This document shows positions 9,554-27,262 of a DNA stretch of 58,882 bases, in pieces. The position numbers were made by a program, and so were the translations under genes. Below the pieces are notes generated by a model. It did no database searches. It was given only the letters and a program-made list of their open reading frames with translations, and was not told the origin of the DNA. This DNA comes from a bacterium (GTDB lineage Bacteria; Armatimonadota; Chthonomonadetes; Chthonomonadales; Chthonomonadaceae), in the NCBI GenBank assembly GCA_900299305.1, contig OMJJ01000119.1, forward strand, positions 1 through 58,882, written 5' to 3'. Within the stretch, counting starts at the first letter, position 1. Each line of letters begins with the position of its first letter.

Positions 9554-9602
9554 TGAATGCCCTCCAAGTTTGTATTTTCTGTTTAGGAAAGGGTCTGTAT
9601 CT

Positions 9603-11497: not shown

Positions 11498-12301
11498 ATG
11501 GAGAGTATCAAACGTACAGGCGCGAAGGCGCGTTATGAAGAGGATGGCTTCTTGGTGGTTCCAGAGGTCATCTTCCCAAACGAACTGGTGGAAAACGCCG
11601 TTTTGGGTATGGATGCGATACGGCGCGGAGAGTACGATACCGGAGTACCCCCGCGCCCCTCCCCATGGAAGCCGGGAGACGACCCCAACCTGCTTTGCAA
11701 AATAGAACAGCCTCAGTTTGCAAGCCACGCCATTCGGGAGTTGCTAAACTACCCCGCGTTGGGAGAGTGGGCATCGGCGATTACGGGGGCTACGGGAGTA
11801 CAAGCGTGGTGGATACAACTGCTCTATAAGCCTTCTGCCCCCGAAGGGGTTACACTAAAGACCAATGTGGGTTGGCATCAGGATAGGTACTACTGGGGGA
11901 TTTGGGAGGAGGATAGCGAACTCCTTACGGCGTGGATTGCGCTTTCGGAGGTGGAAGAGGACTGTGGGCCCATGCACTTTGTGCGCGGCTCACACCAGTG
12001 GGGCTTTCGCAATGAAGGAGACTTCTTCGAGCAGAACTTGGAGGGGCAGAAGCACGGTATTTCGGTTCCGGAGGGGGCGAACTGGGAAGAGGTCTCTGGT
12101 GCGATTCCGAAAGGTGGCGTAACGTTTCATCACAAGCTCACCTTTCACGGCTCTCAAGCCAATGTCTCTGGTAGACCGCGCCGCAGTTTGGCAGTACACC
12201 TAAGAACGCAGAACTCGCGCCCTGTTGAGAATCGGCGGGAGGGATTGACGGAGTTTATCGACGATACAACCCTCTGCCCTGTTATCTATGGGAAGATGTA
12301 A
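11498..12301 (+). CDS. Phytanoyl-CoA dioxygenase (PhyH) family Fe(II)/2OG oxygenase
   Basis: WHQD iron-ligand motif, later HFVRGSH, and family-like length of 267 aa. Confidence 0.75.
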   Translation: MESIKRTGAKARYEEDGFLVVPEVIFPNELVENAVLGMDAIRRGEYDTGVPPRPSPWKPGDDPNLLCKIEQPQFASHAIRELLNYPALGEWASAITGATGVQAWWIQLLYKPSAPEGVTLKTNVGWHQDRYYWGIWEEDSELLTAWIALSEVEEDCGPMHFVRGSHQWGFRNEGDFFEQNLEGQKHGISVPEGANWEEVSGAIPKGGVTFHHKLTFHGSQANVSGRPRRSLAVHLRTQNSRPVENRREGLTEFIDDTTLCPVIYGKM

Positions 12302-12332
12302 CTTGTCTTCACCAAAAAGGAGTGTTTTGGTT

Positions 12333-12758
12333 ATGAAACGAAGTAGAAAAATAGGGCTGATAGCCCTCGTGTTGGTGTTATGCACGGGAGTAGTGGCTTC
12401 GGCGCAGTTGGGTTCTCTGTTCAAGGGGGGCGGTATCGCGTTTATCGTCTCGAAGTTTGGCAAAGACATCAACAAAGCCATTAACCGCCTTACGAAAACA
12501 GAAGACAAAACGGATACTTATGCCACAAAAGTAGTTCCTATTATCTCGGTGGGTAACGGGAAAGAGGCGGGTGCGTGTCAGATTATGGGGGCACCGGAAG
12601 CGGTGGAGAAGGTGGGGGCAGTAGCGCAGTTGGAAGGGGATTTTAGCATTGTGAAGGTGCGAATGCGCGGACTAATCCCCATTGAAGGCAAGGATGTAAG
12701 CCACTTAAAGCGCGTGGTGGGCGTGGGAGTAAGCGGTTTGCTAGATATTAAACTTTAA
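12333..12758 (+). CDS. Secreted hypothetical protein
   Basis: Signal peptide MKRSRKIGLIALVLVLCTGVVASAQ at the internal ATG 12333. No family recognised. Its 3-prime end overlaps the convergent operon by 11 bp. Confidence 0.5.
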   Translation: MKRSRKIGLIALVLVLCTGVVASAQLGSLFKGGGIAFIVSKFGKDINKAINRLTKTEDKTDTYATKVVPIISVGNGKEAGACQIMGAPEAVEKVGAVAQLEGDFSIVKVRMRGLIPIEGKDVSHLKRVVGVGVSGLLDIKL

Positions 12759-13758
12759 TGCTGAAGGAACTGTAAAAAATGGCATGAGTGCGGCGCAACA
12801 CGTTTCCTTGATAGCGGTAGCCCCCCATACCGTGTTCAATGTGGTGGTATTTATATGCCTTCTCTGGAGTCTCTGGTCTTATGGGAGGGCGAGGGGTAGG
12901 GTCATTTTCTATTTCGCCTGCCTTTTGCGAAGTCACTCCGGCTATGCCTTCGATACGCGTTATCCCTCGCTCCTCTATCTCTTTCTTACGCTGGTTTTGT
13001 ACAAAAAGGATGGCGGCTTGCATCTCTTGGAGCGTTTTGGAGTCGGTACTCTTTTTGAGGGCTGGAGAGAAGACAGGGCTGAAATAGAGGGCGGTATCCA
13101 ATTTGCGAAAATCGTTCTCTTGCCAATGTTGAGGGTTGGTCTTAGCAAAAGAGTCCCATTCCGCAACAAGTGTGTTGTAGCCCTGTTGTAGCAGAGTAAG
13201 GAGGGGCTGTATCTCCAACTCTGCTTTGTTTTGCATCAGGTTTTGTAGGGCTATCAAGCCATTTTCCCACGCACTCGTCTTTATTTCAAATGCGCTTTTC
13301 GTGGGGAGTATTTTTTGGGGGGCAGGAGGCTCTTTGGCTTTTTGGCGTTCTACCTCCCATTTTTGAAAGTGCAAATCTATCTCCGCAAGCCGTGCTAGAG
13401 TTGCTTTAAGAAGAAACTGTGTCTCGTTTTGTTGCTTTACAATCTGCTCTAAGGAGTTCGTAACGGTTTCCAGATTGGTGTTCGATTTTACTCCCTCTAA
13501 TGCCTCCAAAAGGGTTTGCGACTGACTTTGTAGGGTTGCCTCTATTGAGTTTACCCATAGAGGGCGTTTCGATTCTAAGATGCGCTCTGTCTGTTGCCCA
13601 ATTTGGCGCACTGTACTCTCCGCATCGTCGTCCTCTTCAATGTCGTTGTGCGTTGCATCCAGAAGACGGCTACGGAGTTCGCGCACTTGTGATGCAACTG
13701 CAAAAACCCCAAACAGTAGCAACACGGAAAGAATAGTAGGAATCCAGTCAAGTGTCAT
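12748..13758 (-). CDS. Membrane-anchored coiled-coil protein with GrpE-like C-terminus (paralog 2)
   Basis: N-terminal TM helix (IPTILSVLLLFGVFAVA) and a long Q/E/L-rich helical region. C-terminal RGITRIEG ... GGYRYQGNVLRRTHAIFY resembles the GrpE beta-domain (E. coli QKGYTLNGRTIRAAMVTV). AAGGAG RBS is present. Paralogous to 13777-15114. Confidence 0.5.
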   Translation of the reverse strand: MTLDWIPTILSVLLLFGVFAVASQVRELRSRLLDATHNDIEEDDDAESTVRQIGQQTERILESKRPLWVNSIEATLQSQSQTLLEALEGVKSNTNLETVTNSLEQIVKQQNETQFLLKATLARLAEIDLHFQKWEVERQKAKEPPAPQKILPTKSAFEIKTSAWENGLIALQNLMQNKAELEIQPLLTLLQQGYNTLVAEWDSFAKTNPQHWQENDFRKLDTALYFSPVFSPALKKSTDSKTLQEMQAAILFVQNQRKKEIEERGITRIEGIAGVTSQKAGEIENDPTPRPPIRPETPEKAYKYHHIEHGMGGYRYQGNVLRRTHAIFYSSFSIKV

Positions 13759-13776
13759 CTTGGTACTCTCCTTTGC

Positions 13777-15114
13777 TTAGGATTGTGGCTCGCTTTTGCG
13801 GTAGTAGAGGGCATGGGTGGGTTGGTTGGCAATAACTTGTCCGTTATACTCATAACCTGCCCTACCCGGCACAATTCTATAGAACCGATACTCCAACTTC
13901 TCTTCTGGGGCAGGAATACGGAGCCTGTCATTTTGAGCATCTGCTTCTATTCTGCCCGGTGACATTCGGGAGGCGGTGGTCTCTTTTGCCGCTTGCTCTC
14001 CTATGCGATAGATACCGCGCTTTGCCAACTGCCGCTGTGCCTGTTGTTGTATTTGCTGAACCGTTTCGTGGAGTTGCGCCCAGTTCTTCGAGAGTGCAGG
14101 TGTCCAATCGCCTGTATCGACCTTGAATTCGCTGTAGAGTGCTCTGTCTAGGGGTTCTATATCGGTAGCGTTCCACTGTGTAGGGGATATTTTGGCGAGT
14201 TCATTCCAGCGTCCTACACTAAAGAAGGTGTATGTGTTACGAATCTGCGCCTCGATATCCGGAGCCGCCTGCTCTAGTTTTATCTTCAGTTTGGAGTACT
14301 CCATTTGAGTCACCCAACTCTCCATCAGCGATTCCCAAGTCGGCGCGAGGGTTGTGGATGAAGAGGGTACAAGACTAGGGCTATCCTGAATCGTTTTCGG
14401 TTCGGTAGCTTCTTTCTGTTGTTGAAGGAGAGCGTCTATTTTTGCGTACAGAGGTTGGATTGTGTCCTTGATTATCTTCTGCACATCTTCTTTTGAGAGG
14501 GCTTCGGGGGTAGAACGGTGAGGCTCAGAAGAGATTTCTTTGCTAAGGGGTATCTCCTGTTTCGCCCCAGCCTGTTCTTCTGCCCACAAGAGCATCATCT
14601 GAAGTCTTTCTGAGAGTTGTTCTACCTGGGTAGCAAGTGGTTGAAGTGCATCGAGTTGTTTGGCGACTGCTTGCCTCTCTTCTCCCTCAAGTTGCTTAAT
14701 GTTGGTTATGGCAACCTCCACTTTTGAGGCTACTTTGCCTATCTCTGGGTTGATACCATCCGCAAAATCATCTACAACAGTAGCGAGATTGTCTATGAGC
14801 CTCTTAACATCGTCATATCTTTTTGACATTTCTTCCACTATCTGCTCTCTGTGAGCCAGTAGCACCGCTTGCCATGCTACTTCTAACTGATTGGCATAAT
14901 CTCTGTGTACTCTGTCTACTATGATATACACAAGCACCACAATAAATACAAGTGAACTCATGGCTCCGAGTGCCGCCCACTTGTTGATTAGCCATGCGGC
15001 AAACTCCGTGCAGACTAACAGAGTTGCCAAAAAAATGAGCGGTTTTACAAAAGTAGGAGGCGGAGGAGTTTGCGTCTCTTCTTTTTGGGGTGGCATAGCT
15101 TGGGCTCCTAACAT
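13777..15114 (-). CDS. Membrane-anchored coiled-coil protein with GrpE-like C-terminus (paralog 1)
   Basis: Two N-terminal TM helices and a long coiled coil. C-terminal LAKRGIYRIGE ... AGYEYNGQVIANQPTHALYY is GrpE-like. The likely true start is ATG 15096, preceded by AGGAG. Confidence 0.5.
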   Translation of the reverse strand: MLGAQAMPPQKEETQTPPPPTFVKPLIFLATLLVCTEFAAWLINKWAALGAMSSLVFIVVLVYIIVDRVHRDYANQLEVAWQAVLLAHREQIVEEMSKRYDDVKRLIDNLATVVDDFADGINPEIGKVASKVEVAITNIKQLEGEERQAVAKQLDALQPLATQVEQLSERLQMMLLWAEEQAGAKQEIPLSKEISSEPHRSTPEALSKEDVQKIIKDTIQPLYAKIDALLQQQKEATEPKTIQDSPSLVPSSSTTLAPTWESLMESWVTQMEYSKLKIKLEQAAPDIEAQIRNTYTFFSVGRWNELAKISPTQWNATDIEPLDRALYSEFKVDTGDWTPALSKNWAQLHETVQQIQQQAQRQLAKRGIYRIGEQAAKETTASRMSPGRIEADAQNDRLRIPAPEEKLEYRFYRIVPGRAGYEYNGQVIANQPTHALYYRKSEPQS

Positions 15115-15129
15115 GGGGCTATGGTGGTG

Positions 15130-17553
15130 CTACATGATAACAATGTCGTCTTCTCTTCCTTGATATTGAGGATAGTTAATTATCAGATGAAGGTGAGCAT
15201 CTGGGCGATAGTGAAGGTGAATGCCCATCCGCAAGTCTACCGTCAAGCCTTGTCTATCCACAATCGTATCTTCGTAGAGGTGGTACTCTCTCTCTTCTCC
15301 CTCTATCTTTAGGCGCGTATATACGGTTATTGTCCCCGTTTGCTTACGAGATAAGATAACCGTATGCTCGTCGGACTCGGTGTTTACAGAGCAACCTGCC
15401 CGTATCAGAGAGGGTTCGTCTAGGTTATGAGAGGCAGACGTGAAGCGAACACCAATAGTAAATGGAAAGTTATCAGTGGAGTCTACCAGTGGGCTAAGGG
15501 TGGCTCCCCGCGCTACGTTTAGAGTATAAAACGGGGTGGCAGTGCCTTGCTGAGAAGCGACTTGTGGAGGTTTTGGAAGATAGCGTATCCCTGTAAACAG
15601 TCTTCTTACCCTCTCTACTACACAGGGGATAAACGTACTGCCTCCGGTAAGGCAGAGCCATTTTACTCTGGGGATTTCTCTCATTTTGTCGCGTAGGGAG
15701 GGGTATGCCTCCTTAAAATGGACACGCTTGAGTACGGTATTTACCCCATGTTCCCCCTCTTCGGGAAGCAGGATGGGGTAGGTGTCGGACTCGGTGATAC
15801 CTATCTCTAACATTTTATGTAGGTACTCATTGTAGAGCGAGGCGATTAGGCTCCATGAGACGACTGCCCCCTCTCCAAAGGTATCCGGTGCATTTAACTC
15901 TACTCTCGAATCTTGCCTCAAGCGGGTTTCATCTGGGGGAAAAGAGAGTTTTTCTTTGGCGCGTCGAATATCGTCTACAAAAGCGGTATGACTATATTCG
16001 TCGGGCTTTTTGGGAGAGTTCTCCATAATACGTTCGGCGAGGAGTGCGTCTACAAGGTCGCCCCCTATGGGAAACCCTAATCTAAGGTGTCGCTTAAACT
16101 GATATACCCCTTGCGACTGCGTTATCTCCAAAATACAGATGTCGGTAGTTCCTGCCCCCGAATCGAAGACACAGATGTAGTCGCCGTCGTGCAGGTCGGT
16201 CATACCCCACTGTTCGTGGTGATACAGAAAGTCGATAGCGGCGGCTTCTGGCTCTGATAGGGTCTCTATCTTGTGTCTGGGGAACCCCGCTAGTTCGGCG
16301 GCATCGAGTGTCCTCTCTCTCTGCTCATTGAACTGGATTTCGTTTCCCAATACGGGTAGGCTCATTACTACCCGTGCGTTACTAAAAGGGTCTTTGCCGT
16401 TAAAGAGGGGCTTACTCTGTAGCTCTTGATAGAGGAAGGTAAGAAAGTCGGTGACAACCTCTGGGGCGGTATAGGTTCGGGCCGTGGCTTCGTGCGGGTA
16501 CTCGGTGTCGCTAGAGAGAAGTTTTTTCACAGAGCGAATCACGAGGGAGTCGGAGGTAACACTCGCGGGTACTTCCCATCCAAAGAGGGGTGGGTCTCCT
16601 ATGGCGGGAGGGTACATGACTACCGAAGGCAGACTTTGGCGACTGTTGTTCCACTCTATAGGGATAAGTGTTTCGGGTGCGTTGAGGTTATCTATCACAA
16701 AGACCGCGCTTTTATAGGTTCCAAAGTCTATTCCGATAATCCAACGCTCTCTCGGTTTTTCGAGGGGTTTGGGGTACTGAGCAAACAGCACGACCTCTTG
16801 CGGCGTAGTAAAGCCCAACCCCGACACCTTGAGTTTGCCGTTATACCTCTCTCTACCATATTCATACGGGGGAGGCGTGATGGAGATGTGCCGCCTTTCC
16901 CGTGCGTCAATGGTAAGCGTCCCTTTGGTTTGTACGCCTACCCCCTCCTGTTCGATACGGAAATCGCCCTCTGTTACCTCTAGGGTGATGTCGTCTTCTG
17001 CATCTCCTTCGTTATGTAGGCAGAGCGATTGGGACTGGTGGGGGCTACGGAAAATCAGGGTTTTGCTCAGAACAAAGGTGGGGCCCAAACGCTTACGCTC
17101 TAGAGTGGCACGTACCTGCATCTCGGAATGTACATCCATGTTGGCAGGTCGGAATATCTCGTCGGGGTCGTCGGTTAGCGGTTCGCGGGTGTTGGTGTCT
17201 AGGGTAAAGCAGATATCCTTTGCCTCTTCGGGTACTGCGTTGGGTAGCAGGTCAAATTTCCAAACGAATCGCGGGTTTTTGGCGGAGAGCGGGGCAGGGT
17301 TATTAACGGCTTGGGTCGATTGTACCCCCGCCGGTAAGTTGCTGAAAGCAAAGCGTATACTGCCTGCCCCCTCATGCGTTAGCATTACCGTACAGGGCGT
17401 AGGGGTATACCCAATGAGGACAATGGGGTCTGGGGTAATCGTCGCGATCACTTTTCCCAACGACCATCCGCAGTATACACAGAACTGAATATCGTCGTCA
17501 TCGGGATTATAGGATGTTTTTTTGCAGTGGTGGCAAAACGCGAACGTGTTCAT
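15130..17553 (-). CDS. Hsp70/DnaK-like ATPase with N-terminal zinc ribbon and beta-rich insert
   Basis: CHHC...CVYC zinc ribbon (aa 7-28), then about 240 aa of beta-rich sequence. Actin-fold ATPase motifs follow: IIGIDFGTYKS (phosphate 1), LSEPEAAAI, VFDSGAGTTD (phosphate 2) and LTGGSTFIP (adenosine). The short C-terminal beta domain resembles a lidless substrate-binding domain. Confidence 0.8.
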   Translation of the reverse strand: MNTFAFCHHCKKTSYNPDDDDIQFCVYCGWSLGKVIATITPDPIVLIGYTPTPCTVMLTHEGAGSIRFAFSNLPAGVQSTQAVNNPAPLSAKNPRFVWKFDLLPNAVPEEAKDICFTLDTNTREPLTDDPDEIFRPANMDVHSEMQVRATLERKRLGPTFVLSKTLIFRSPHQSQSLCLHNEGDAEDDITLEVTEGDFRIEQEGVGVQTKGTLTIDARERRHISITPPPYEYGRERYNGKLKVSGLGFTTPQEVVLFAQYPKPLEKPRERWIIGIDFGTYKSAVFVIDNLNAPETLIPIEWNNSRQSLPSVVMYPPAIGDPPLFGWEVPASVTSDSLVIRSVKKLLSSDTEYPHEATARTYTAPEVVTDFLTFLYQELQSKPLFNGKDPFSNARVVMSLPVLGNEIQFNEQRERTLDAAELAGFPRHKIETLSEPEAAAIDFLYHHEQWGMTDLHDGDYICVFDSGAGTTDICILEITQSQGVYQFKRHLRLGFPIGGDLVDALLAERIMENSPKKPDEYSHTAFVDDIRRAKEKLSFPPDETRLRQDSRVELNAPDTFGEGAVVSWSLIASLYNEYLHKMLEIGITESDTYPILLPEEGEHGVNTVLKRVHFKEAYPSLRDKMREIPRVKWLCLTGGSTFIPCVVERVRRLFTGIRYLPKPPQVASQQGTATPFYTLNVARGATLSPLVDSTDNFPFTIGVRFTSASHNLDEPSLIRAGCSVNTESDEHTVILSRKQTGTITVYTRLKIEGEEREYHLYEDTIVDRQGLTVDLRMGIHLHYRPDAHLHLIINYPQYQGREDDIVIM

Positions 17554-17555
17554 AG

Positions 17556-18356
17556 CTACTGCTTCCCTTGTTTTACGGAGTTGATAATTCCCCTAAAGGT
17601 GTTGATGGGTATGGCTACCTGCTTGTTGTTGCCGATGTCGTCGGGTGTGGAGGCGGTATTGATACCGATAAGCCGCCCCCTTTCGTCGATAAGCGGTCCC
17701 CCACTGAAGCCTTTCTGTATGGTACAGGTGTGTATGATAAGGCGTTGTTCGGTGTCACTGGGCAGGAATGCGGAGATGGTTCCGGTGGGCATATCTTGGC
17801 TAGGTGTCTTATCTCCGCTTCCGTCTATCATTGTCTTTCCGTAACCAATCGCAGTTACCTTTGCCCCCTTGTTGAAGGTGGTGTCATCTGCAATGGTGAA
17901 GTGAGCCAGCTTATCTGCCTGAACTTTAAGAATCGCGAAGTCGTTGGGGAGTTGTTTTAGGAATTCGGGGATAGTGTTGGCAGGAGTAGCACTCGCCTCT
18001 CCTTTTTGGGAAACGGTTGCACTCAACTTTATTGGCTTTGCGCTCCCGCTATCGAAGTACACTGTAATTGTGCTTGCTCCCGCAATAACGTGCCGATTGG
18101 TGAGGATGTATCCATCCGCAGTAAGTACACAACCCGTTCCCGACCCCGAATCGGTGACAATGAGGACTGTTGCAGCCTTCGCGTCGTTCGGCTTAAAGAG
18201 GGTGTAGAGTATCGTAACCACTACTATGGGAAGCAAAAGGGCGAGTAGTTTCGCAAGCGAGAAGTTCCCAATGGGTTTCGCGGCTGTTTTGGTAGTTGCG
18301 GTAGTAGTGGTGGTGCTACTGCTGGTAGTAGCCCAGTTATCGGAATAGTATCTCAT
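17556..18356 (-). CDS. Membrane-anchored trypsin-like (S1/HtrA-type) serine protease
   Basis: Ser/Thr-rich N-terminus, one TM helix, then triad motifs LTNRHVI (His), NDFAILKV (Asp) and GFSGGPL (Ser). ATG 18356 has an AAGGAG RBS that overlaps the stop of the upstream gene. Confidence 0.85.
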   Translation of the reverse strand: MRYYSDNWATTSSSTTTTTATTKTAAKPIGNFSLAKLLALLLPIVVVTILYTLFKPNDAKAATVLIVTDSGSGTGCVLTADGYILTNRHVIAGASTITVYFDSGSAKPIKLSATVSQKGEASATPANTIPEFLKQLPNDFAILKVQADKLAHFTIADDTTFNKGAKVTAIGYGKTMIDGSGDKTPSQDMPTGTISAFLPSDTEQRLIIHTCTIQKGFSGGPLIDERGRLIGINTASTPDDIGNNKQVAIPINTFRGIINSVKQGKQ

Positions 18357-18367
18357 AGCACCTCTCC

Positions 18368-21300
18368 TTATCGGGTGAGCTGGGTCGCTCTTATTTGGTG
18401 TGAACTGCACTCTACGTTATTACAAGGGGCTTTGAAGAGAGGGCGCACTCTGCCTTGTACCGCATTACAGGTTTTGCAACGCCATGTCTCTCTCTCGCTG
18501 TCCCACCTTGCCCAGATGTGCATGGCGGTAATGTCTTCGGCATTTAGGTCGGTGTAATGCCCCAAAAGCCACTCGCTAAACCGTTCTATCGCATCCTCAA
18601 AAACGAGCCCTCCCAAATCTAGGTCATCATAGTAGCCTGTGGACTGCCCCGAGTTGATAAGCTCTTGCAGTGCCTTCGAGTGTCCGATGATGGTTTTCTT
18701 TACGTAAGCGTCGTTGTAGTTTCGGGTTGCGTCACCTATCTCATTCAGGCGTGTTTCGAGGTAAAGAATGGTGTGTTCGTGTTGTGCAAGCGCGAGTGCC
18801 GCTCGCTGAATATCACGATTGGGGTACGAAATTTGACGCGCCCCGTCGTTTCGGTTGATGGTGTACATTAGGGTATGTTGCGCCCCATCCCAAGAGATGT
18901 TGACGCCCTCTGTCCAGCCCTTTTTGGGGCGCGAAGCCAACGCTTCTGAGATGAGCAGGAGTGTTTTCGCCTTCTCTATCACGTTGGGAGGCAATATCAG
19001 CGTAATAGAGCGTTGGGTGAAAGGAGTGGTTTGGTTTTGCGCGTTGGGCGGGAACAGAATGCTACGCCGTCCCGCAATCTCATATCCGCTAATGACGTGA
19101 GAGGGAAATGCCCCCCGCACAAAGAGGTTGGCTACCACGCCGGGGTCATCATGTTCCGCAGGGCTGGCGCAAGGGTTTGCACTGAGAGTCTCTGCAAACT
19201 CTGCGGTAGCGATTTTCATTCCCTCCTGAAAGGTTTCGTACAGTTCTACATCGTTAGCACGGTGGGCAAGAGACTGCCACACAAACGTAGAGGTGGAGAA
19301 ACTGCTTAGGAGTTCGGCATATCCCGGAGTTCCGAGTTGTAGGCTGAGTAAAGGACGACCCTCTCGTGCAAGGTCGGCGCATATTTTGGAAAGGTTTTCG
19401 GGGTTTTCCAGCTCGCGCCCACGCTCTGTATGAGAGAGCATTCGCAAAACAGAGATGTTTACTGCTTGCTGACGACCTATGTTGTCTTCGTTGCGGAGTT
19501 GGGTTTCGATTTTACTTTTTAGAGGGTCGAACAGGCTAAAATCGACATCTCCATTGGCACGTCTTGGAAGCCCTGCACGGAAGTTTCCGTTGTTCATACG
19601 GTGTTGTAAATCGGCAAGGCTATGGAGGCTAATGTCGTTTTGCAGTTGGTCGAGTTGCCTTGATACCCATTCTGCGTCGAAGACGTTATCGGAAAAGAGG
19701 TCACGAATCAGTCTTTGGTCACTGGCATCGTTTCGGCTTGCCGCATAGTTCCACTGTTCTACGTAGTCGATAAAGTTAGCCACCTGACTATAGAGGCTCT
19801 CTTCGCCAGTTCTTAGGTCTCGTAGCACATCATCGTATATCTGTAGTCGGGCAGATACCAAGCATCGTTCATAGAGGTTGTTGGCGCGGTAGGCTTTTTC
19901 AAGTAGGTTGTCGTTGCTAATCGTGACCACCTCTTTAACCACTTTCGGCTTGGCTTTGTGGAAGGGAATCAGCGGGTCTACTGGAGGTTTCTCCTCTACC
20001 TCTTCCTCTTCTACTTCCACCTTTGTCGTCTTTTGCGGTACTCCAGTACCTGCGTTCTTGAGTACTTTCGCCATGAGTGCGTGGTCTGCGCTCATCTCTT
20101 TGTCGAGTGCGATTGCCAAACTGAGGGCATAGCGGGGTCCCTTACTTTGGTCGAAGACGAGCGGAAGTAGGTGGAGGCGTACTCTGTGTTTAACGACCCT
20201 CTGCCCACTTTTAGCGATAAGGTCTTCCTTGTTACGCTCTATGGTTCCTGCAATGTAGCCCGGCGTTTGCGGTGCTAGGTACTTTGTGGGTATGGGAGAG
20301 GGGAACTGGTTGGTGAGATCACTCTCTGTGGAGCTACGGGTTACGTTACGGAGTACCGCCTCTAGGCTCTCCGAGTCGGTTTGAATCAGCTCTTTATAGA
20401 GGGGGTCTTTGTTGGTAGCCCACTCCTTCTCTGCGGCGATGTCGGGAGGAAGTCGCAATCCCACAATATCGCGTAGTGTCTGTAGGTCGGCTTCAAAGAG
20501 TACCGTGAGATCTTCGTCCTCTTTCAGAAATCTTTGGTTAAGAGCAGGAGTGTCAATTTCGGAGGGTTTAAGCCAAAACTGTATCAGTTTTTGAATAATC
20601 TGGCGTTGGGCGATATTGATGCACAGCCCTATAGGAAACTGCCGTAGCCCAATACCGAAAGTGGTGTAGCGGTTGGGATAGCCGTGGTTATCAGCGGGGA
20701 GCGACGAGAAGTTCTGCTGCATATCGTGGATACGCGCCCCGAATGCATTGCGTCCTCCTTTGGAGGTAAGACGCATAAAGAGATAGTCGGAAATCTTTTT
20801 CTCTAGTATCGCCATTGCGTCACGGGCGTTTTCGGCGAGGTTGTTCTCTAGTTGGCGTGGAGATACGAGAGTTATCAGGTCATAAGGAGCCTGTTTTCCG
20901 ATGTCGGGGGGCAGGGACTCCTCTCCGTACTGGGCTTGAAAGATGTTCTCGGCTTTACAGAAGTGGTCGAGTTCTTGTACCAGTGCTACAGAGTTTCGCA
21001 TCTGCGAGGGCCAGTCGGTTAGCCCAACGGAGGCGATAGCGGCGATGCCTTCGGTTTCACAGATACCGGGGCTGATGTTAGAGCGCCGTATAGCGTTTGT
21101 GAGCAGATAGCCGAAGTCGATAAAGGTTCCGGAGCCGGTTCCTCCTCCTCCCGAAGCCACTACAAAGACGAGCATAGAACCCGCGTCGTTGCCGGTGGTA
21201 TCAGTGCGAAGGGCGAGAATATCTTTGAGGATACGAGAGCGCAGTTCGTGCAGGTTACTGGTAGCGAGTAGAGAGAGTCGCCCCATCATGCGTACCCCTT

Positions 21301-21625
21301 TTACACCACCCTCGAAGTTCTGAGCGGTGATGTTTTGGCGCAGAATGGGGTCAAACCAGTCTTTCATGCGTAGGGTGGCAGAGGTGGGCGAGTCGGGCTG
21401 TTGGAGGTCTACCATCTTTTGAATGGGAACTCGTAGCGGGTAGGCGTTATCTCGAAATTTTTCTAGTGCCTCGTTGTCGCGCATATCGGTATCTATAAAT
21501 AGGTAGCGCATATTGGGTGGGTCGGGGGTTCCATACGCCATCTGAAAACGTTTGCGGAGGTTATAGACGACCTCTTTACCGGTACCACCGAGTGCTATTA
21601 CTAATCCGGGGCGATTGAGATTCAT
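18368..21625 (-). CDS. Giant tubulin/FtsZ-superfamily GTPase-like protein (Tubulin_2/FtsZ-like type) with C-terminal zinc ribbon
   Basis: N-terminal VIALGGTGKEVV (T1-like loop) and an exact tubulin signature SGGGGTGSGTF at aa 158-168 (nt 21128-21151). Long helical remainder with an acidic KVEVEEEEVEEKPP linker, and C-terminal CKTC...CNNVEC. Confidence 0.75.
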   Translation of the reverse strand: MNLNRPGLVIALGGTGKEVVYNLRKRFQMAYGTPDPPNMRYLFIDTDMRDNEALEKFRDNAYPLRVPIQKMVDLQQPDSPTSATLRMKDWFDPILRQNITAQNFEGGVKGVRMMGRLSLLATSNLHELRSRILKDILALRTDTTGNDAGSMLVFVVASGGGGTGSGTFIDFGYLLTNAIRRSNISPGICETEGIAAIASVGLTDWPSQMRNSVALVQELDHFCKAENIFQAQYGEESLPPDIGKQAPYDLITLVSPRQLENNLAENARDAMAILEKKISDYLFMRLTSKGGRNAFGARIHDMQQNFSSLPADNHGYPNRYTTFGIGLRQFPIGLCINIAQRQIIQKLIQFWLKPSEIDTPALNQRFLKEDEDLTVLFEADLQTLRDIVGLRLPPDIAAEKEWATNKDPLYKELIQTDSESLEAVLRNVTRSSTESDLTNQFPSPIPTKYLAPQTPGYIAGTIERNKEDLIAKSGQRVVKHRVRLHLLPLVFDQSKGPRYALSLAIALDKEMSADHALMAKVLKNAGTGVPQKTTKVEVEEEEVEEKPPVDPLIPFHKAKPKVVKEVVTISNDNLLEKAYRANNLYERCLVSARLQIYDDVLRDLRTGEESLYSQVANFIDYVEQWNYAASRNDASDQRLIRDLFSDNVFDAEWVSRQLDQLQNDISLHSLADLQHRMNNGNFRAGLPRRANGDVDFSLFDPLKSKIETQLRNEDNIGRQQAVNISVLRMLSHTERGRELENPENLSKICADLAREGRPLLSLQLGTPGYAELLSSFSTSTFVWQSLAHRANDVELYETFQEGMKIATAEFAETLSANPCASPAEHDDPGVVANLFVRGAFPSHVISGYEIAGRRSILFPPNAQNQTTPFTQRSITLILPPNVIEKAKTLLLISEALASRPKKGWTEGVNISWDGAQHTLMYTINRNDGARQISYPNRDIQRAALALAQHEHTILYLETRLNEIGDATRNYNDAYVKKTIIGHSKALQELINSGQSTGYYDDLDLGGLVFEDAIERFSEWLLGHYTDLNAEDITAMHIWARWDSERETWRCKTCNAVQGRVRPLFKAPCNNVECSSHQIRATQLTR

Positions 21626-21658
21626 AATCGGGTTTCTCCTCTCTTTAATATCAAACGT

Positions 21659-21979
21659 TTAAGCGTCTAGGCGTGGGCATTTCAGCCAGAAGTAGGCAAG
21701 CAGTCCTCCAAAGAGGGCTACCAGTAGAAGCGTATTGAGTAGAGCCATCATATCCCCCGCCCAGAACGCAAGGTACTCTGTGTGTGGAGAGGAGACAAGA
21801 ATCATATAGAGCAGTAGCCCCCATAACCCTGCCGTCCATGCGTAGCGAATGGCATCGGAGGGAGAGAGTTTACACAGGCGCAAAAAGAGGGGATATAGTA
21901 GTAGATAGACCAGCAAAAATGTTGCCGCAAACTCGATGAAGAGCCAAAGCAACGCATTGGGATTTGTAACAAGTAGCAT
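21659..21979 (-). CDS. Small integral membrane protein (about 3 TM helices)
   Basis: 106 aa from ATG 21979, with an AAGGAG RBS 9 nt upstream. Hydrophobic throughout. The longer track ORF (to 22105) would overlap the vWA gene. Confidence 0.6.
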   Translation of the reverse strand: MLLVTNPNALLWLFIEFAATFLLVYLLLYPLFLRLCKLSPSDAIRYAWTAGLWGLLLYMILVSSPHTEYLAFWAGDMMALLNTLLLVALFGGLLAYFWLKCPRLDA

Positions 21980-22002
21980 CGTTTCTTTCTCCTTACTGAT
22001 AC

Positions 22003-23397
22003 TTACTGGCACACATTGTTTTGAGTGCGCGGAACTACCTGTTCCGTGCTGGGCTTGGGTTGATAGAACAGAGCAAAAAAGATAAAAACTCCCATGGCGG
22101 CCCAACAGGCAATCTGCCTGAATTTGAGGTTCGTGGCTGTGGCGGCAGTGCTTGCTCCGAGTGTGAAGTCGAGTTCTACTTCTATGCCGTTTCGGGGAAT
22201 GAGGTAGAGCCGTGTGAGTGCTTCATACGGAAGCGTAACAGGCTCGGTATGTTCTAGGTATCTGTTTTCGCTTAGGAGTTTTATGTCGGGGTGCACCTTT
22301 TCCAAGAGGCACTCGCCGGTAGTCCCTTCGCTCAGAGAGAGGGTGAGCAGGAGTTCTGGGATAAGTGTTTTGCCCTGTGCCCCTAGGGATAGGGGGAGGT
22401 AGATGTCGTATGGGTTGCTTGGTTTGGCACTAGACTCACACGCAAAGATTCGGATACTCTGATTTTCTGCCGTTAAGGTGCGTGGCAGCGCGTTTCGAGA
22501 GTCGGCGCGGAGCGTGACGCTGGTTTTCAATCGCTTGGTTCCTTGCCTAGACTGAACCGCGAAAAACCCCAACACTCCCGCAACTATAACAGCCAACACT
22601 TTCACAGGAGTTGCGGAAGGGGTAGTACTTACCTCGTAGGGAGTGTCGTTGGTGAGGAGTATCTGATTACGCACTTCGATAACGCTCTGTTTCCCTTTTG
22701 CCTCTGCCTCTATTGCCCACAGTATGAAATAGGTGAGCGACTTTTTGTCTTCTCCTATGCGATCTATACGGGTCTCTTTCATGCCGTTTTCGCTGGTAGT
22801 AAGGCTTTTTAGAGCTTCCCGATAGGCGTTTTCGTTGCCGTTGGTTCCAGCGGTTCCTTTTTTGTGGGTAATCAGCACTGCAACAACGCGGTGGTACTTG
22901 TCTTCTTTTTGGATACGGCTGGCTTGTACCATCAGTTGGTTCCGTGCCTCGTAGTAGCTGTCTTGCACCGCAGATTTGGGGGCGGTAAAGAGGGTATTCA
23001 GGCGACCCCCAAACATTTCGCGGTCATTAAACTCTTTGTTACTAATCTCACCGGGGGCAAGTTGTACCGCGGTATCGAAGTGGTAGAGGGTAAGCCTATC
23101 TTTAGCGGTAAGGAAGTTGCTTCCAATACGTATTAACGCCCACTGCACATCGTTAAGGGGAGTGCCGTGCATTCCTCTAGCGGTATCGACCATAAGGACG
23201 AGGTGGAGTGGATACTTGCAGGGGTTTACCTCTTTTGCAAAGGTTTTAGAAAGAAGTGCCTCGTACAGTTTGTACTGCTCTTGTGCGGAAGCATCAGCAC
23301 GGCAACGCAGGGGTACACCGCCCATCAGAAGGCAGAGCAACAGGGTACTCCAAAGAGGCGCGGGGTATGCGGTTTTCCGTAGAGAGCGTAGTAGCAT
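22003..23397 (-). CDS. vWA-domain membrane protein
   Basis: Signal peptide, then a vWA fold start HLVLMVDTARGMHGTPL (DxSxS degenerated to DTARG). A TM helix follows (VLAVIVAGVLGFFAV), then an about 150-aa domain and a C-terminal TM helix. Confidence 0.7.
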   Translation of the reverse strand: MLLRSLRKTAYPAPLWSTLLLCLLMGGVPLRCRADASAQEQYKLYEALLSKTFAKEVNPCKYPLHLVLMVDTARGMHGTPLNDVQWALIRIGSNFLTAKDRLTLYHFDTAVQLAPGEISNKEFNDREMFGGRLNTLFTAPKSAVQDSYYEARNQLMVQASRIQKEDKYHRVVAVLITHKKGTAGTNGNENAYREALKSLTTSENGMKETRIDRIGEDKKSLTYFILWAIEAEAKGKQSVIEVRNQILLTNDTPYEVSTTPSATPVKVLAVIVAGVLGFFAVQSRQGTKRLKTSVTLRADSRNALPRTLTAENQSIRIFACESSAKPSNPYDIYLPLSLGAQGKTLIPELLLTLSLSEGTTGECLLEKVHPDIKLLSENRYLEHTEPVTLPYEALTRLYLIPRNGIEVELDFTLGASTAATATNLKFRQIACWAAMGVFIFFALFYQPKPSTEQVVPRTQNNVCQ

Positions 23398-23410
23398 GGT
23401 TATATCTCTT

Positions 23411-24853
23411 TTACAAAGAGGGTAGGGCTTTGATTTGCATACCGCCGTTGTTCATAGTAAAGAACACAAGGCGGTTGGCGGTATAGAAGATGCGTATTTG
23501 TCTGTCGCTACCAGGAAAGATGTTGATGAACTGCATGGGTTTGAGCGGAGGTCTGCCCCATGCAAAATAGTGGCTATCTTGGTCTTGGGAGTGAAAAATA
23601 AGAAAGGGAGTACTCTGGCTATACGGAACCAGGAACATCTCGATATTCTCCGTAACGCCTGCATCCATGATATGTGTGTCTCTATAGGTTGCGTTCGCGG
23701 GTCTCTCTCTGCTTAGGCAGAGGAGAGTGAGGCTTTCGTCGAACGCATAGAAGTAGTCTTCTTCTATAAGCAGAGAGCGCAGATGGCGGTGTGGTGTCCA
23801 GTTTAGGCTGTGTTGTCTCTGCTGTGCGAAACTCCCTACCGGAAAGACGATAATCTGATACCTGCGCTGGTTGGAGTTATCTTGGGATTCGTAGTAGATA
23901 ACGGCTCCAAAATTTTTGCCTACGTGCCATGCTTGAATGTGGTGAAAGGGGGTACGGATGATTGGCAAAACATCAAGCACCGGAGAGGCATCTTCACCCG
24001 TTCTGATATGATAGAGCGCACCATTTTGTGCGAGCACATAGAACCCTGTTGCGTGTGGCAGAATACGGCGCGGCGGCAGGTTTTCATAGCTGACGTTGGT
24101 AAGAGGTTTTATGGTACGGGGGTGGGTATTGTTACGACAGAGGTCACTTATCGCATAGAGGCGTGCCTCTTGGGTCTGGTGTGTGCTACCTACTACTAGC
24201 AGATGCTCTTGGTTTAGGCAGGTAGTCAACTCCTGAAAATCCTCTACAGAGAACTCAAATAGGGGTGCGCCGCTTCCGGTATGAAACCCGCATATCTGGT
24301 TTTTATGGCGTACCACAAAGGCGTAGGTTCCCACTTCTAAGGAGGTAGGTACATAGGAGCCAATCATCGTGCTTGCTAGTTGCGGCAGTGTGGTGTGCAT
24401 TTGGGGGAGTGTTTGCAGGGTACTCATATCTATTACCTCAATACTCCCAGACATAGTAAGGCAGTAGAGGCGATTGTGGCGTAGTTGCGCTTCGCGCAGG
24501 AGGGGCATTCCTGCTAAGGGGTAGAGGGTTTCGCCGATGTCGGAGGGAGTAGGATACTCTGCATTTCTTTTTGCGTAGAGGGCATTTGCCGCTAACACAT
24601 CCCCACTTGCAGGTAGAAGGTCGTAGAGAACGCTCTCTGCACTCTTATCCGCACTGCAAGAGATGGGGGCTCCGTGTTCGTTGTAGCGGTAGAAGGTGCC
24701 ACAGGAGGCACAAAAAGGGGTCTGTTGGTAGGGTACCATAGCCTTACAGTCGGGTGCAAGGCAACGCGCCAAATGAGCCGTACCACAACGAGAGCAGTAG
24801 CGATAGTTACTGCTAATCTCTGGTAATATCTTTCCGCAGTGGCATATTGACAT
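23411..24853 (-). CDS. Double zinc-ribbon protein with C-terminal beta-propeller-like domain
   Basis: N-terminus CHCG...CSRCG...CLAPDC...CASCG. The remaining about 400 aa show repeated beta-strand blocks (LYCLTMSGSIEVID, YAFVVRHKNQICGF, FYVLAQNGALYHI) reminiscent of PQQ/BamB-like propellers. I prefer ATG 24853 over the TTG at 24913. Confidence 0.55.
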   Translation of the reverse strand: MSICHCGKILPEISSNYRYCSRCGTAHLARCLAPDCKAMVPYQQTPFCASCGTFYRYNEHGAPISCSADKSAESVLYDLLPASGDVLAANALYAKRNAEYPTPSDIGETLYPLAGMPLLREAQLRHNRLYCLTMSGSIEVIDMSTLQTLPQMHTTLPQLASTMIGSYVPTSLEVGTYAFVVRHKNQICGFHTGSGAPLFEFSVEDFQELTTCLNQEHLLVVGSTHQTQEARLYAISDLCRNNTHPRTIKPLTNVSYENLPPRRILPHATGFYVLAQNGALYHIRTGEDASPVLDVLPIIRTPFHHIQAWHVGKNFGAVIYYESQDNSNQRRYQIIVFPVGSFAQQRQHSLNWTPHRHLRSLLIEEDYFYAFDESLTLLCLSRERPANATYRDTHIMDAGVTENIEMFLVPYSQSTPFLIFHSQDQDSHYFAWGRPPLKPMQFINIFPGSDRQIRIFYTANRLVFFTMNNGGMQIKALPSL

Positions 24854-25089
24854 AAAATATCTCTCTGTTTCTGATAGAATCTTCCCTCGTATTTCGCAAA
24901 CCCAAATGCACAATACTCACTTCTATACCAGTGCATCATACAAAAACAAAAAGTGCGTACAGTTACTTCAATATAGTCAGTATGATTTCTTGTACTGGCA
25001 CAATGATACATAATACTCAAAATGTAGAAGAAGTGTCGACATATACTACCACAAACCTCGTAAAATTCCTATCCAATCCTCTAAAATTA

Positions 25090-25119
25090 TTGACAAGTAC
25101 TATGTTATTTATTTATAAT
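25090..25119 (+). promoter_or_regulatory. Sigma-70-like promoter for the 25262 gene
   Basis: TTGACA (25090-25095), 18-nt spacer, TATAAT (25114-25119), within an AT-rich divergent intergenic region. Confidence 0.45.
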
Positions 25120-25261
25120 AGAGAGGTGTGGAATAGATATGTTAGAGAGTTGTATTTAAATGTAGACAGTGTGATAGTCTTTTGAAGACTATTTTCAGAG
25201 GAGAACTCTGTTCACTTACCTCTATACTGTACAGTAATTTGTAAAACGGAAAGGTATTGCC

Positions 25262-27262
25262 ATGATATTTCTGCCCTTCTTTGTAGATGACCCTAGTGAT
25301 ACCATCAGAAACACCTACCCTCATACTCTGTTTGCCCTAGAGCATCGAGAGCGTTTTCGTAATGTGATATCCCGTATAGACAACGATTCCAGCCGGCTAG
25401 GAATGGTAAGCTATGCCTGGCCCGAACTCCGCACCACCTGCCAAAAGGTGTTTGCTTATAAGTGCGCTTTCTGTGAACGTGCTTTACACCAAGAAGAGGA
25501 GCAGACTCTTACCTACTGGCGGCCTTCTGGATATACTGCCAACCCCTCGACAGGGGTTGTTGAGGGAGGGCAGTATCCATGGCTACAGAATGAGGCACGC
25601 AATGTCTACTATGCTTGTGCCGCCTGTATCGCCGCCAAAGGACACTATTTTCCTATCTGGGGTACGAGACAGGTACCCGGGTCAGATTGGGAAAAGTGCC
25701 GTGACGAGAAGCCACGGCTACTTGCTCCTTATGAAGAGAATCCCAACGCCCACCTTATTTTTGAGAGCGATGGAACGGTAAATTCAAATACAAAAAAAGG
25801 AGTGGCTACCATCACTACCTTTGACCTGAATAGGGAGTCGCTAGTAATAGAACGCCAAAGTGCCTACCAGCAGGTGTATAACTGGCTTGACACCTATACC
25901 GAGAGTAGCCGCGATGCGGAGTTCCAGTTGCGTGGGCTACTGGATATTATGCAACCCTTTGCCATGTGCAAGCGGCAAGCCTTGCGGCAATATACCGAAG
26001 AGAGGCTAAAGCAGGACAAACTTACCCCCTTCCATGAACAGTGGCGAAATACCATTATTGAGCAGGATGAAGCGATACTAGCCGCTACACAAAAGATATA
26101 CCTTAGCCCCATTGTGCCAATGTCGGATTCGGATGTAGAGACCAAGATGTTAGGGGACACTACCCCCATTCTCAAAAAAGTGGTCATTACAAATTTTCGA
26201 GGAATTAAATCGCTTACCATTACCATGCCAGACGCAAAAACTCCTCGTAGTAGGACTTATCGTACCGAACTGGGGCGGCTCTCTGCTTCGTATAATGAAT
26301 CCTCTCCAGAGACGTGTGTACCCAGCATGGTGCTGCTAGGGGAAAATGGTGCCGGCAAGACCGATGTGCTACAAGCCATTGCGCTTGCACTTCTCTCAGA
26401 CCAGCATCGGAATCAGAGCTTGTTACATCTCCCTCCATACAACGAACTACTGCACAAAGGGGAATCGAAAGGCAAGATAGAGGTTGATATGAGTACGGGA
26501 ACCTTTCAGTTTGAGTTTACGGCAAGCGGTGGCACTCAAAAGTATATACCTCATAGAACAGGACACCCCACTCCCCCAGTAGTGGTATTGGGTTACGGAA
26601 CCTTCCGCGACATTTTACTCGAAAACAGAAGGGCGGAAGGGGAACCGTTTCCCATCTGTAATCTATTCGATAACCAAGATGCTCTGCTTAAAGTAAAGTG
26701 GAACCCCGATGAGATTGAAGAGGTACTCAAGATGGCGATGCGCCTTGTCCCCAATGCCGTCCTTCGTTTTACTGCAGCATTCGGAGCAGAGATACAGGAT
26801 ATTAGAGTGGAGCATTGCGACGATGGAGAGATACCCCCGCATCACCACTCCAACGGACATCGGACCGTCGTCTTTTTGGTATGCGATATCATTCATAAAC
26901 TACTCCACTTCGCAAAACAGTCATCCGCACTAAGCCTCTCAAAACAGATACGCTTCACAAAGGCAGTGATACTTATCGACGAACTAGAGTCACATCTCCA
27001 TGTAAGTTGGAAACGTGAGATTATGCCGCGGCTTCGGGAGGAGTTTCCCCAAGTGTCATTTATCGTAACGACCCAAGACCCATTTTTAACGCTCTCCATG
27101 AACAAGGACGAAGTACTACGTCTGTACCGACAAAAGAATGGAGAGATTGGACAAGAGCCTATCAACTGTGAGGAAATCCGTACTACTACCCTTGAGGAGA
27201 TAATGGACACGGATGCCTTTGGGACACCAGAAGGCTGGTATGATACCCTTATTACTGATTAG
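25262..27262 (+). CDS. Fusion protein: N-terminal HNH-like (TIGR02646/PtuB-like) domain plus C-terminal ABC/AAA_15-type ATPase (PtuA-like)
   Basis: N-terminus CAFCE...TYWRP...NVYYACAACIAAKG..FP...LLAPYEENPNAHLIFESDG follows the TIGR02646 HNH layout. C-terminus has Walker A LLGENGAGKTD, Walker B VILIDELESHLH and a FIVTTQDP switch. Confidence 0.65.
   Translation: MIFLPFFVDDPSDTIRNTYPHTLFALEHRERFRNVISRIDNDSSRLGMVSYAWPELRTTCQKVFAYKCAFCERALHQEEEQTLTYWRPSGYTANPSTGVVEGGQYPWLQNEARNVYYACAACIAAKGHYFPIWGTRQVPGSDWEKCRDEKPRLLAPYEENPNAHLIFESDGTVNSNTKKGVATITTFDLNRESLVIERQSAYQQVYNWLDTYTESSRDAEFQLRGLLDIMQPFAMCKRQALRQYTEERLKQDKLTPFHEQWRNTIIEQDEAILAATQKIYLSPIVPMSDSDVETKMLGDTTPILKKVVITNFRGIKSLTITMPDAKTPRSRTYRTELGRLSASYNESSPETCVPSMVLLGENGAGKTDVLQAIALALLSDQHRNQSLLHLPPYNELLHKGESKGKIEVDMSTGTFQFEFTASGGTQKYIPHRTGHPTPPVVVLGYGTFRDILLENRRAEGEPFPICNLFDNQDALLKVKWNPDEIEEVLKMAMRLVPNAVLRFTAAFGAEIQDIRVEHCDDGEIPPHHHSNGHRTVVFLVCDIIHKLLHFAKQSSALSLSKQIRFTKAVILIDELESHLHVSWKREIMPRLREEFPQVSFIVTTQDPFLTLSMNKDEVLRLYRQKNGEIGQEPINCEEIRTTTLEEIMDTDAFGTPEGWYDTLITD

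Follow-up and report, generated by a model that had tools for sequence, protein, structure and literature searches.

A predicted operon of Armatimonadota combining FtsZ-like and Hsp70-like NTPases with a vWA membrane protein, a tethered protease and GrpE-like membrane proteins

What could a tubulin-like GTPase, an Hsp70-like ATPase and a membrane-tethered protease, encoded side by side in one bacterium, be doing together? The question is raised by a gene cluster on contig OMJJ01000119.1 of a Chthonomonadaceae bacterium (Armatimonadota; assembly GCA_900299305.1), whose 58,882 nt are referred to here as the window. The cluster consists of eight minus-strand open reading frames (ORFs) at 12748-24853, labelled G1 to G8 in transcription order with G1 most upstream (Table 1), and neighbouring frames lie 2-33 nt apart (from G1 to G8: 13, 23, 33, 11, 2, 15 or 33, and 18 nt). 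Start codons were picked by the Shine-Dalgarno-like sequence preceding them; AGGAG-type ribosome binding sites (RBSs) are located upstream of G3, G4, G5 and G8, and that of G5, GATAAGGAG (GGAG-type), overlaps the TAA stop codon of G4. The tight packing, the spacing and the RBS/stop overlap reported in a preliminary description of this DNA were all confirmed on coordinates, as was the 3' end of the operon; its 5' end, formerly set at 24913, is most likely the ATG at 24853, because the TTG at 24913 is not preceded by an RBS.

About ten independent loci from metagenomes and metagenome-assembled genomes (MAGs), mainly of Chthonomonadales (Armatimonadota) plus a UBP9 MAG, show this gene order again, and because of this recurrence the grouping of the eight genes exceeds chance; the single module postulated earlier thus passed the neighbourhood check. 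The order G1-G2-(G3)-G4-G5-G6 followed by GrpE-like genes was found in loci L001/L002/L011, L003, L006, L007, L010 and L025 (G3, present in most clades, is missing from L003 and L025), with tubulin-like identity falling to ~27% across syntenic loci and to 23% in the partial UBP9 locus L013. The best relatives of the window are L008 and L009, which points to a probable Chthonomonas-like source; in L008, truncated upstream, the genes from G3 to the GrpE-like ones are retained. When 185,579 species were scanned with one genome each, full-length Hsp70-like homologues turned up in six genomes (four Armatimonadota/Chthonomonadales, one UBP9 and one Burkholderiales MAG), a metagenome scan contributed one further complete locus, and full-length relatives of G4 fall into ~20 clusters, all from metagenomes or MAGs. 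Gene content is variable as well: L001 and L010 have two protease genes each, the Burkholderiales locus (L012, a short contig) has only the Hsp70-like/GrpE-like pair, and L004 carries G1 to G5 and lacks that pair. The cluster is therefore composed of two modules, tubulin/vWA/protease and Hsp70-like/GrpE-like (vWA, von Willebrand factor A).

Table 1. Coordinates of the operon genes, their main domains and the surrounding features of the window (TM, transmembrane; NBD, nucleotide-binding domain; HTH, helix-turn-helix)
Feature	Position	Strand	Description
G1	23411-24853	-	480-aa soluble protein, N-terminal double Zn ribbon and ~400-aa beta-rich domain
G2	22003-23397	-	464-aa vWA membrane protein
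vWA domain of G2	22828-23214	-	~aa 62-190
G3	21659-21979	-	106-aa small polytopic protein, 2-3 TM helices
G4	18368-21625	-	1085-aa predicted FtsZl1/Tubulin_2 GTPase
Tubulin/FtsZ fold of G4	20582-21604	-	aa 8-348
G5	17556-18356	-	266-aa membrane-tethered trypsin/HtrA-like serine protease
G6	15130-17553	-	807-aa soluble Hsp70-like ATPase
Hsp70 NBD of G6	15484-16752	-	~aa 268-690
G7	13777-15114	-	445-aa protein, 2-TM hairpin, coiled coil, C-terminal GrpE-like domain
GrpE-like domain of G7	13801-14247	-	~aa 290-438
G8	12748-13758	-	336-aa protein, one N-terminal TM helix, long helices, C-terminal GrpE-like domain
GrpE-like domain of G8	12769-13221	-	~aa 180-330
Divergent intergenic region	24854-25261		promoter-like sites, consensus matches only
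Promoter-like site for the operon	25039-25010	-	consensus match only
Promoter-like site for the PtuA-like gene	25090-25119	+	consensus match only
PtuA-like gene	25262-27262	+	666 aa, divergent from the operon; PADLOC PtuA1 E 5e-90, nearly full length
Small HTH protein	27539-28081	-	beyond the PtuA-like gene
659-aa protein	28474-30453	+	beyond the PtuA-like gene; no Pfam or PADLOC match
156-aa ORF	12288-12758	+	signal-peptide-like N-terminus; no family match
Diguanylate cyclase gene	6875-8407	-	GAF-PAS-GGDEF

By profile, motifs and structural model, G4 is a predicted FtsZ/tubulin-fold GTPase with intact GTP-binding motifs. It matched Pfam Tubulin_2 (PF13809; E 1.4e-35, 123.7 bits against a cutoff of 27) over positions 1-355 of the 356 in the model, a family equivalent to what Makarova and Koonin termed 'FtsZ-like' (FtsZl1; PMC9871819). 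An AlphaFold2 (AF2) model built with 22 homologues (pLDDT 82, pTM 0.74) retrieved in Foldseek, over its ~350 N-terminal residues, TubZ, FtsZ, CetZ and tubulins with probability 1.0, E down to 3e-6 and a target-normalised TM-score of ~0.5 across ~340 columns. Within the GTP-binding motifs T1 (GGTG) and T4 (GGGTGSG), residues G13, G14, G16, G161, G162, T163, G164 and G166 are invariant among the 22 homologues, and the acidic residue following H7 (APYD), a possible counterpart of the T7-type catalytic residue, is conserved. The tubulin-superfamily assignment made previously from GGGTGSG is hence upheld by family match, fold and invariant motifs. Beyond the tubulin domain, G4 continues with a ~700-aa helical extension for which no relative was detected, has a disordered, acidic linker at 530-570 and ends in a Zn ribbon that is rubredoxin-like by a weak match.

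The second NTPase is G6, which matched Pfam HSP70 (PF00012; E 3.6e-13, 49.1 bits, cutoff 20.6) as well as the NCBIfam models of HscA/DnaK, and whose family profile retrieved DnaK NBDs from the PDB at E 5e-15. The NBD contains all phosphate and adenosine motifs, and these are invariant in the family (IDFGT, K343, EPExAA, DxGAGTTD and TGGS). These matches mark G6 as a predicted Hsp70-type ATPase domain with intact catalytic motifs, in agreement with the preliminary description. Outside the NBD there are an N-terminal Zn ribbon, a ~230-aa region without assignable domain and a ~110-aa C-terminal domain. At L007 (14043-16481) the Hsp70-like gene is split into ORFs of 254 and 525 aa, for which a frameshift, an assembly error or decay are all possible.

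G7 and G8, rightly taken for paralogues before, are related across their C-terminal 145 residues (BLASTP E 3e-15), and their family alignment follows the GrpE layout of a long helix, a helical bundle and a beta domain; the family motif GGYRxxGxVLRPTxAxFY (GGYRYQGNVLRRTHAIFY in G8) resembles the GrpE signature KGYxLxGRxLRPAxV. In hhalign, the family matched E. coli GrpE alone with a probability of 5%, a 3-sequence GrpE profile with 26-30% (block shuffles reaching the score in 14 of 200 cases) and a 14-sequence profile, in which E. coli GrpE and two PDB sequences were joined with eleven grpE genes from plasmids, with 67%; a 24-sequence family profile set against the gap-trimmed 14-sequence profile reached 85.5% (E 5.7e-6, score 43.0, 140 columns). 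That score was attained neither by column shuffles (0/100; scores 11.6) nor by block shuffles of the GrpE columns, which leave the short motif intact (0/150; 30.4 +/- 2.1, maximum 41.4), a separation convincing only at the 14-sequence depth of the GrpE profile. Moreover, one or two genes with the GrpE-like domain, as scored by a domain hidden Markov model (HMM), lie directly downstream of the Hsp70-like gene in 11 of 11 distinct loci including the window, counted over full-length Hsp70-like homologues with downstream sequence in Armatimonadota, UBP9 (L013) and Burkholderiales (L012) MAGs. Because the hhalign score lies above all shuffles and the adjacency to the Hsp70-like gene is strict, we accept the C-termini of G7 and G8 as putative remote GrpE homologues, an assignment that is moderately supported and does not amount to a proven fold.

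The window clade has two such genes, a lineage-specific duplication; other clades have a single gene of 567-675 aa whose product combines a signal peptide, a ~90-230-aa extracytoplasmic domain, a TM helix and the cytoplasmic GrpE-like domain. The G8 family numbers 22 representatives among 1.84 billion, and large homology searches with G8 and its family returned the query and one homologue only. In L008 (8229-9309) the G8 homologue is split into two overlapping ORFs, again compatible with a frameshift, an assembly error or decay.

G2 has a signal-like N-terminus followed by the vWA domain, a TM helix (263-281), a middle domain, a second TM helix (426-444) and a short tail. G2 alone gave no Pfam match; its family profile (seven members) retrieved the vWA domains of ITIH1/ITIH4 from the PDB at E 1.4e-4 and other vWA proteins more weakly, and the UBP9 homologue has weak Pfam VWA matches. 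The vWA gene adjoins the tubulin-like gene in all complete loci. Cys463, at the C-terminus of G2 (22003-22017), does not vary among the seven homologues. It comes after the last TM helix and a Pro-rich segment, 2-3 residues before the terminus in the window clade, and might form a disulphide or be lipidated on the extracytoplasmic face.

G5 matched Pfam Trypsin_2 (PF13365; E 8e-24, 85.5 bits) and, in part, the NCBIfam models of DegP/DegS/HtrA. Its layout comprises a conserved cytoplasmic N-terminal YYxxxW motif, a TM helix (32-50) and an extracytoplasmic protease domain, and the window protein has an intact H89/D139/S218 triad, as do 8 of 12 homologues; the membrane-anchored trypsin-like protease of the preliminary description is thus corroborated. 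By analogy only, G5 resembles DegS of the DegS/RseA pair, an N-terminally TM-anchored periplasmic trypsin-fold protease encoded with membrane-spanning partners, and the partners of G5 could carry a signal inward. Unlike in that pair, G5 has no PDZ domain detectable with Pfam, no sigma or anti-sigma factor is encoded alongside, and the triad has been lost in one sister lineage.

For G1, the double Zn ribbon claimed previously is sustained by a Pfam DZR match (E 0.012) and by eight cysteines invariant in seven homologues, and a conserved YRY/DLLPASGD linker connects the ribbons to the beta-rich domain. The beta-propeller suggested for the latter was not confirmed: against the PDB the G1 profile gave Zn-ribbon matches and a non-significant BamB match only, and hhalign against BamB returned a probability of 0.9%. 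The conserved motifs RHxRLY and GYDAGxG have the look of repeated beta strands and not of a P-loop fold, and a TM scan found no TM helix. Zn ribbons therewith occur on three cytoplasmic proteins, G1, G4 and G6.

Two sets of published predictions come close to this gene composition. Makarova and Koonin (2010) described operons of FtsZl1 and vWA genes with OmpA-like, kinase and GTPase partners, for which they proposed membrane remodelling (Biol Direct 5:33, PMC2875224); the FtsZ-like/vWA linkage cited in the preliminary description is indeed in that paper, whose text makes no mention of Hsp70, GrpE or a protease. Here, too, a divergent FtsZ/tubulin GTPase with long non-FtsZ extensions is encoded beside a vWA protein that has a signal peptide and TM helices, many partners are membrane proteins and the distribution is sparse. 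OmpA-like partners are found in L006 (14411-17073) and L013 (6368-9081), where two genes are inserted between the protease and Hsp70-like genes, one for a coiled-coil protein of ~600 aa with an N-terminal anchor and the other for an OmpA-domain protein of ZorB/MotB-like type (ZorB1 E 4e-15). In contrast to the published operons, the protein kinases and P-loop GTPases frequent there are absent here, and the metal ion-dependent adhesion site (MIDAS) of the vWA domain, intact in most of their vWA proteins, is degenerate in the window lineage. The insert of L006 and L013 recalls both the ZorAB pair of Zorya and the OmpA partners of FtsZl1 operons. A Zorya-like reading of the window itself was rejected, as the ZorA match of G7 is weak (E 0.0014) and ZorB/MotB-like genes occur only as these inserts; further PADLOC matches were likewise weak (E >= 0.001), those of G7 (ZorA2, HamA, BrxC) probably reflecting its coiled-coil composition and that of G6 being to PDC-M61B.

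Kaur et al. (2020; eLife 9:e52696, PMC7159879), on the other hand, predicted membrane-proximal, NTP-dependent conflict systems centred on GAP1-N2 DO-GTPases, which typically bear two N-terminal Zn ribbons and are accompanied by non-overlapping themes: tubulin with vWA, Hsp70 with GrpE, or kinase/phosphatase with vWA (PMC7159879). Our operon shares with them the tubulin and extracellular vWA-TM proteins, the Hsp70 and GrpE combination, Zn ribbons on core proteins and trypsin-like peptidases as processing components. It differs in that the themes, separate and found in Firmicutes/Actinobacteria there, are both present in one Armatimonadota operon together with a tethered protease, in that its GrpE-like domain has diverged strongly and is anchored in the membrane, and in that the defining TRAFAC-clade DO-GTPase (Walker A, Walker B-Glu) is absent. 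Neither a Walker A motif ([AG]xxxxGK[ST]) in G1-G8 nor a GTPase family match in Pfam, NCBIfam or PADLOC was found, and membership in the DO-GTPase systems was rejected because all eight proteins lack a P-loop; no obvious three-domain GAP1 (GAP1-N2, -M, -C) was seen among the eight products either, the libraries searched containing no GAP1 profile. To judge from sequence comparison, the cluster joins features of FtsZl1-vWA operons with the tubulin/vWA and Hsp70/GrpE themes of GAP1-N2 systems. No characterised tubulin/Hsp70/protease system was found in the literature; the novelty claimed for the combination is tempered by the related themes that Kaur et al. had predicted.

Signal peptides, hydrophobicity/TM positions and the positive-inside rule would place the vWA and protease domains in the periplasm, and the tubulin-like and Hsp70-like proteins, G1 and the GrpE-like parts in the cytoplasm. 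The explanation that we favour, which taken as a whole we regard as an even call, is that the eight genes form one conserved, horizontally mobile module encoding a membrane-spanning machine driven by two NTPases. The extracytoplasmic vWA domain would bind a ligand or a perturbed envelope component, a task that in other clades may also fall to the long, single GrpE-like protein with its extracytoplasmic domain, and the DegS-like tethered protease would process a partner. The membrane-anchored GrpE-like proteins would bring the Hsp70-like ATPase to the membrane and reset the nucleotide state of this partner, and the ATPase together with G1 would gate GTP-dependent FtsZ-like assembly there, in a manner analogous to the tethering of FtsZ by FtsA. 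Like FtsZ-FtsA, the operon pairs a tubulin-fold GTPase with an ATPase of the ASKHA fold (actin/Hsp70 superfamily), by which the GTPase would be linked to the membrane; unlike FtsA, G6 is of the Hsp70 clade and would be connected to the membrane indirectly, by way of the GrpE-like proteins.

Because of its rarity, patchy distribution, variable context and composition, and defence-related neighbours, such a machine would most likely serve envelope surveillance or conflict (for example, anti-phage defence) rather than housekeeping, a circumstantial argument by analogy for which the predicted conflict systems with tubulin and vWA or Hsp70 and GrpE modules are a precedent (PMC7159879). The varying copy number of protease and GrpE-like genes between loci speaks for this reading as well. 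Flanking genes differ from locus to locus, which together with the rarity of the family suggests an accessory, mobile character. In the window, the defence-like neighbour noted earlier was recovered as the PtuA-like gene adjoining the operon; by its PADLOC match the product is a predicted Septu-type defence ATPase, and since its N-terminal part also matches PtuB1 (E 6e-27), it may be a PtuA/PtuB fusion. The close relative L007 has an AAA_21/AAA_15 ATPase gene of about that length in the corresponding place. A weak HEPN-like insertion in L004 and the ZorB/MotB-like and coiled-coil insert of L006 and L013 are further neighbours of this kind. In L003 (1-1291 and 1344-9681, within a 3.5-Mb contig), transposases of the DDE_3, Y1_Tnp and DDE_Tnp_1 families flank and interrupt the system.

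Other features of these surroundings were recorded in their own right. The small HTH protein and the 659-aa protein beyond the PtuA-like gene have counterparts of equal sizes beyond the ATPase gene of L007 (180 aa with a faint HTH_3 match, and 670 aa with no match), and both genes might belong to the same defence islet. The ~350 nt upstream of G1 contain promoter-like hexamers on both strands, with a total site count not above that of shuffled sequences. At the other end of the operon, the 156-aa ORF runs toward G8 and shares 11 nt with its 3' end, and the diguanylate cyclase gene lies ~4 kb past the operon with hydrolase, S15-peptidase and PhyH genes in between, and has no evident link to it. 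Upstream in L003, a large protein of 1340 aa, cut at the locus end, has a weak Hsp70-like match (E 2e-9). L004 has a flavodoxin-like gene between its tubulin and protease genes, and upstream of the former (9188-9969) a 166-aa protein with a weak HEPN match (E 8e-4, below threshold) plus an 88-aa ORF, which may be an inserted toxin-antitoxin-like pair.

Several observations weigh against the proposed machine and its role. With respect to GrpE, a Pfam scan of 11 members of the G7/G8 family found no PF01025 match even at E<=10, the family HMM profile retrieved only spurious influenza PB2 matches from the PDB, and the AF2 model of G8 (3-sequence alignment, pLDDT 55) is of low confidence and too poor for a fold test; Foldseek gave helical-bundle noise only with it, and its order of long helices, helix bundle and beta strands fits GrpE. 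Of the GrpE-like C-termini described previously, the profile alignment and the adjacency thus stand, whereas Pfam does not recognise them. With respect to Hsp70, profile matches to G6 cover the NBD and none extends into the substrate-binding domain (SBD), the ~110-aa C-terminal region being too short for an SBD plus lid, and no DnaJ/J-domain match was found among the eight products (Pfam, E<=0.1), although a housekeeping DnaJ may be encoded elsewhere in the genome. For these two reasons support for the dedicated Hsp70/GrpE cycle envisaged before reaches as far as the NBD and its GrpE-like partners, short of a complete chaperone cycle. Like a DnaK-GrpE pair, the operon has an Hsp70 NBD with all catalytic motifs beside a protein of GrpE layout, but the GrpE-like domain, below Pfam detection, is fused to TM segments (in other clades also to an extracytoplasmic domain), a J-protein and a match into a DnaK-type SBD/lid are missing, and G6 adds its Zn ribbon and ~230-aa region.

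The same holds for the extracytoplasmic components. The vWA membrane protein was verified by profile and TM helices, but its MIDAS reads DTARG in the window and DTAEG in the closest relative, L007, DxSxS being intact in the G2 homologues of L001, L003, L006 and L013. In L007/L008 the whole protease triad is replaced (Q/E/N) with the operon otherwise kept, and the second protease copies of L001 and L010 are inactive, the catalytic His being missing from both and the Ser too in L010. Proteolysis therefore cannot be universally essential, which weakens the idea of a protease effector. Regarding defence, PADLOC-DB v2, which has no model for the system, returned no system-level match, and for G5 generic protease-domain matches only; no classical toxic effector (nuclease, TIR, pore-former) is among the products; and the flanks of L025 (AraC regulators, GH2) and of L001 and L006 (amidase, racemase and FtsW/PBP cell-wall genes) are not defence genes.

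Some of these points would suit a housekeeping or developmental role in membrane remodelling, which we deem possible though rather unlikely. In keeping with the proposal of Makarova and Koonin for FtsZl1 operons, an FtsZ-like polymer anchored via the Hsp70-like/GrpE-like pair and the vWA protein would then give shape to membrane, to vesicles or to a structure at the surface. The Tubulin_2/FtsZl1 protein with its vWA and, in L006/L013, OmpA-like partners reproduces their association (PMC2875224), most components are membrane proteins, and both the cell-wall genes flanking L001 and L006 and the lack of a toxic effector agree with such a role. The distribution, however, is very sparse and patchy even inside Armatimonadota, contexts vary and include insertion sequence elements in L003, a defence gene adjoins the operon in the window (in L007 its place is taken by an AAA_21 ATPase gene), and gene content differs among loci, none of which is decisive.

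A bolder variant of the surveillance machine, tentative and in our view unlikely, would make the GrpE-type exchange factor the transducer in an as yet unrecognised kind of transmembrane signalling or immune device that dispenses with the DO-GTPase/GAP1 core. The extracytoplasmic/TM part of the factor would act with the vWA receptor and the tethered protease to pass on what happens at the envelope (phage attachment or damage, for instance) as nucleotide exchange on the Hsp70-like ATPase, and the latter would then trigger or dissolve FtsZ-like polymers at the membrane. An FtsZ/FtsA-like cytoskeletal pair would thereby have been repurposed for defence.

Quite improbable, next, is a quality-control or secretion helper in which the Hsp70-like/GrpE-like proteins and the protease fold, insert or degrade the vWA protein as an adhesin-like client, with the tubulin-like protein as scaffold. 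An NBD with intact motifs and dedicated GrpE-like partners, an HtrA/DegP-like protease and a vWA protein with a signal peptide and two TM helices would all be in place; yet no J-domain or match into an SBD was found, L004 keeps G1-G5 without the Hsp70/GrpE pair, the protease is catalytically dead in L007/L008, and the conserved GTPase and three Zn-ribbon proteins would be left unexplained. More doubtful still, and to be considered very improbable, is a degenerate GAP1-N2 DO-GTPase system with G1 as the inactivated DO-GTPase or GAP1 equivalent: G1 has the two N-terminal Zn ribbons typical of these GTPases, and their systems associate with tubulin and vWA-TM or with Hsp70 and GrpE, but the eight proteins contain no Walker A and no GTPase match in Pfam, NCBIfam or PADLOC, the motifs of G1 are beta-strand-like and not those of a P-loop, and the published tubulin and Hsp70 themes are separate. 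Chance adjacency of unrelated genes is hardly credible and effectively refuted by the conserved synteny, seen in about ten Armatimonadota and UBP9 loci with differing contexts and with tubulin-like identity down to ~23-28%, on top of gaps of 2-33 nt and a stop codon overlapping the next RBS.

What is new at this locus is the fusion of the tubulin/vWA and Hsp70/GrpE themes in one operon, plus a tethered protease. It shows that these themes, which had been predicted as alternative additions to DO-GTPase-centred conflict systems, can make up a system of their own from which the DO-GTPase core is absent. A literature search found no experimental study of any FtsZl1/Tubulin_2 protein, and the module offers a compact, conserved context for FtsZl1, the third branch of prokaryotic tubulin homologues. 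If the proposed machine is real, it would include the first membrane-tethered, possibly signal-regulated GrpE-type exchange factor, and would represent a new coupling of two cytoskeletal/chaperone NTPase folds outside cell division.

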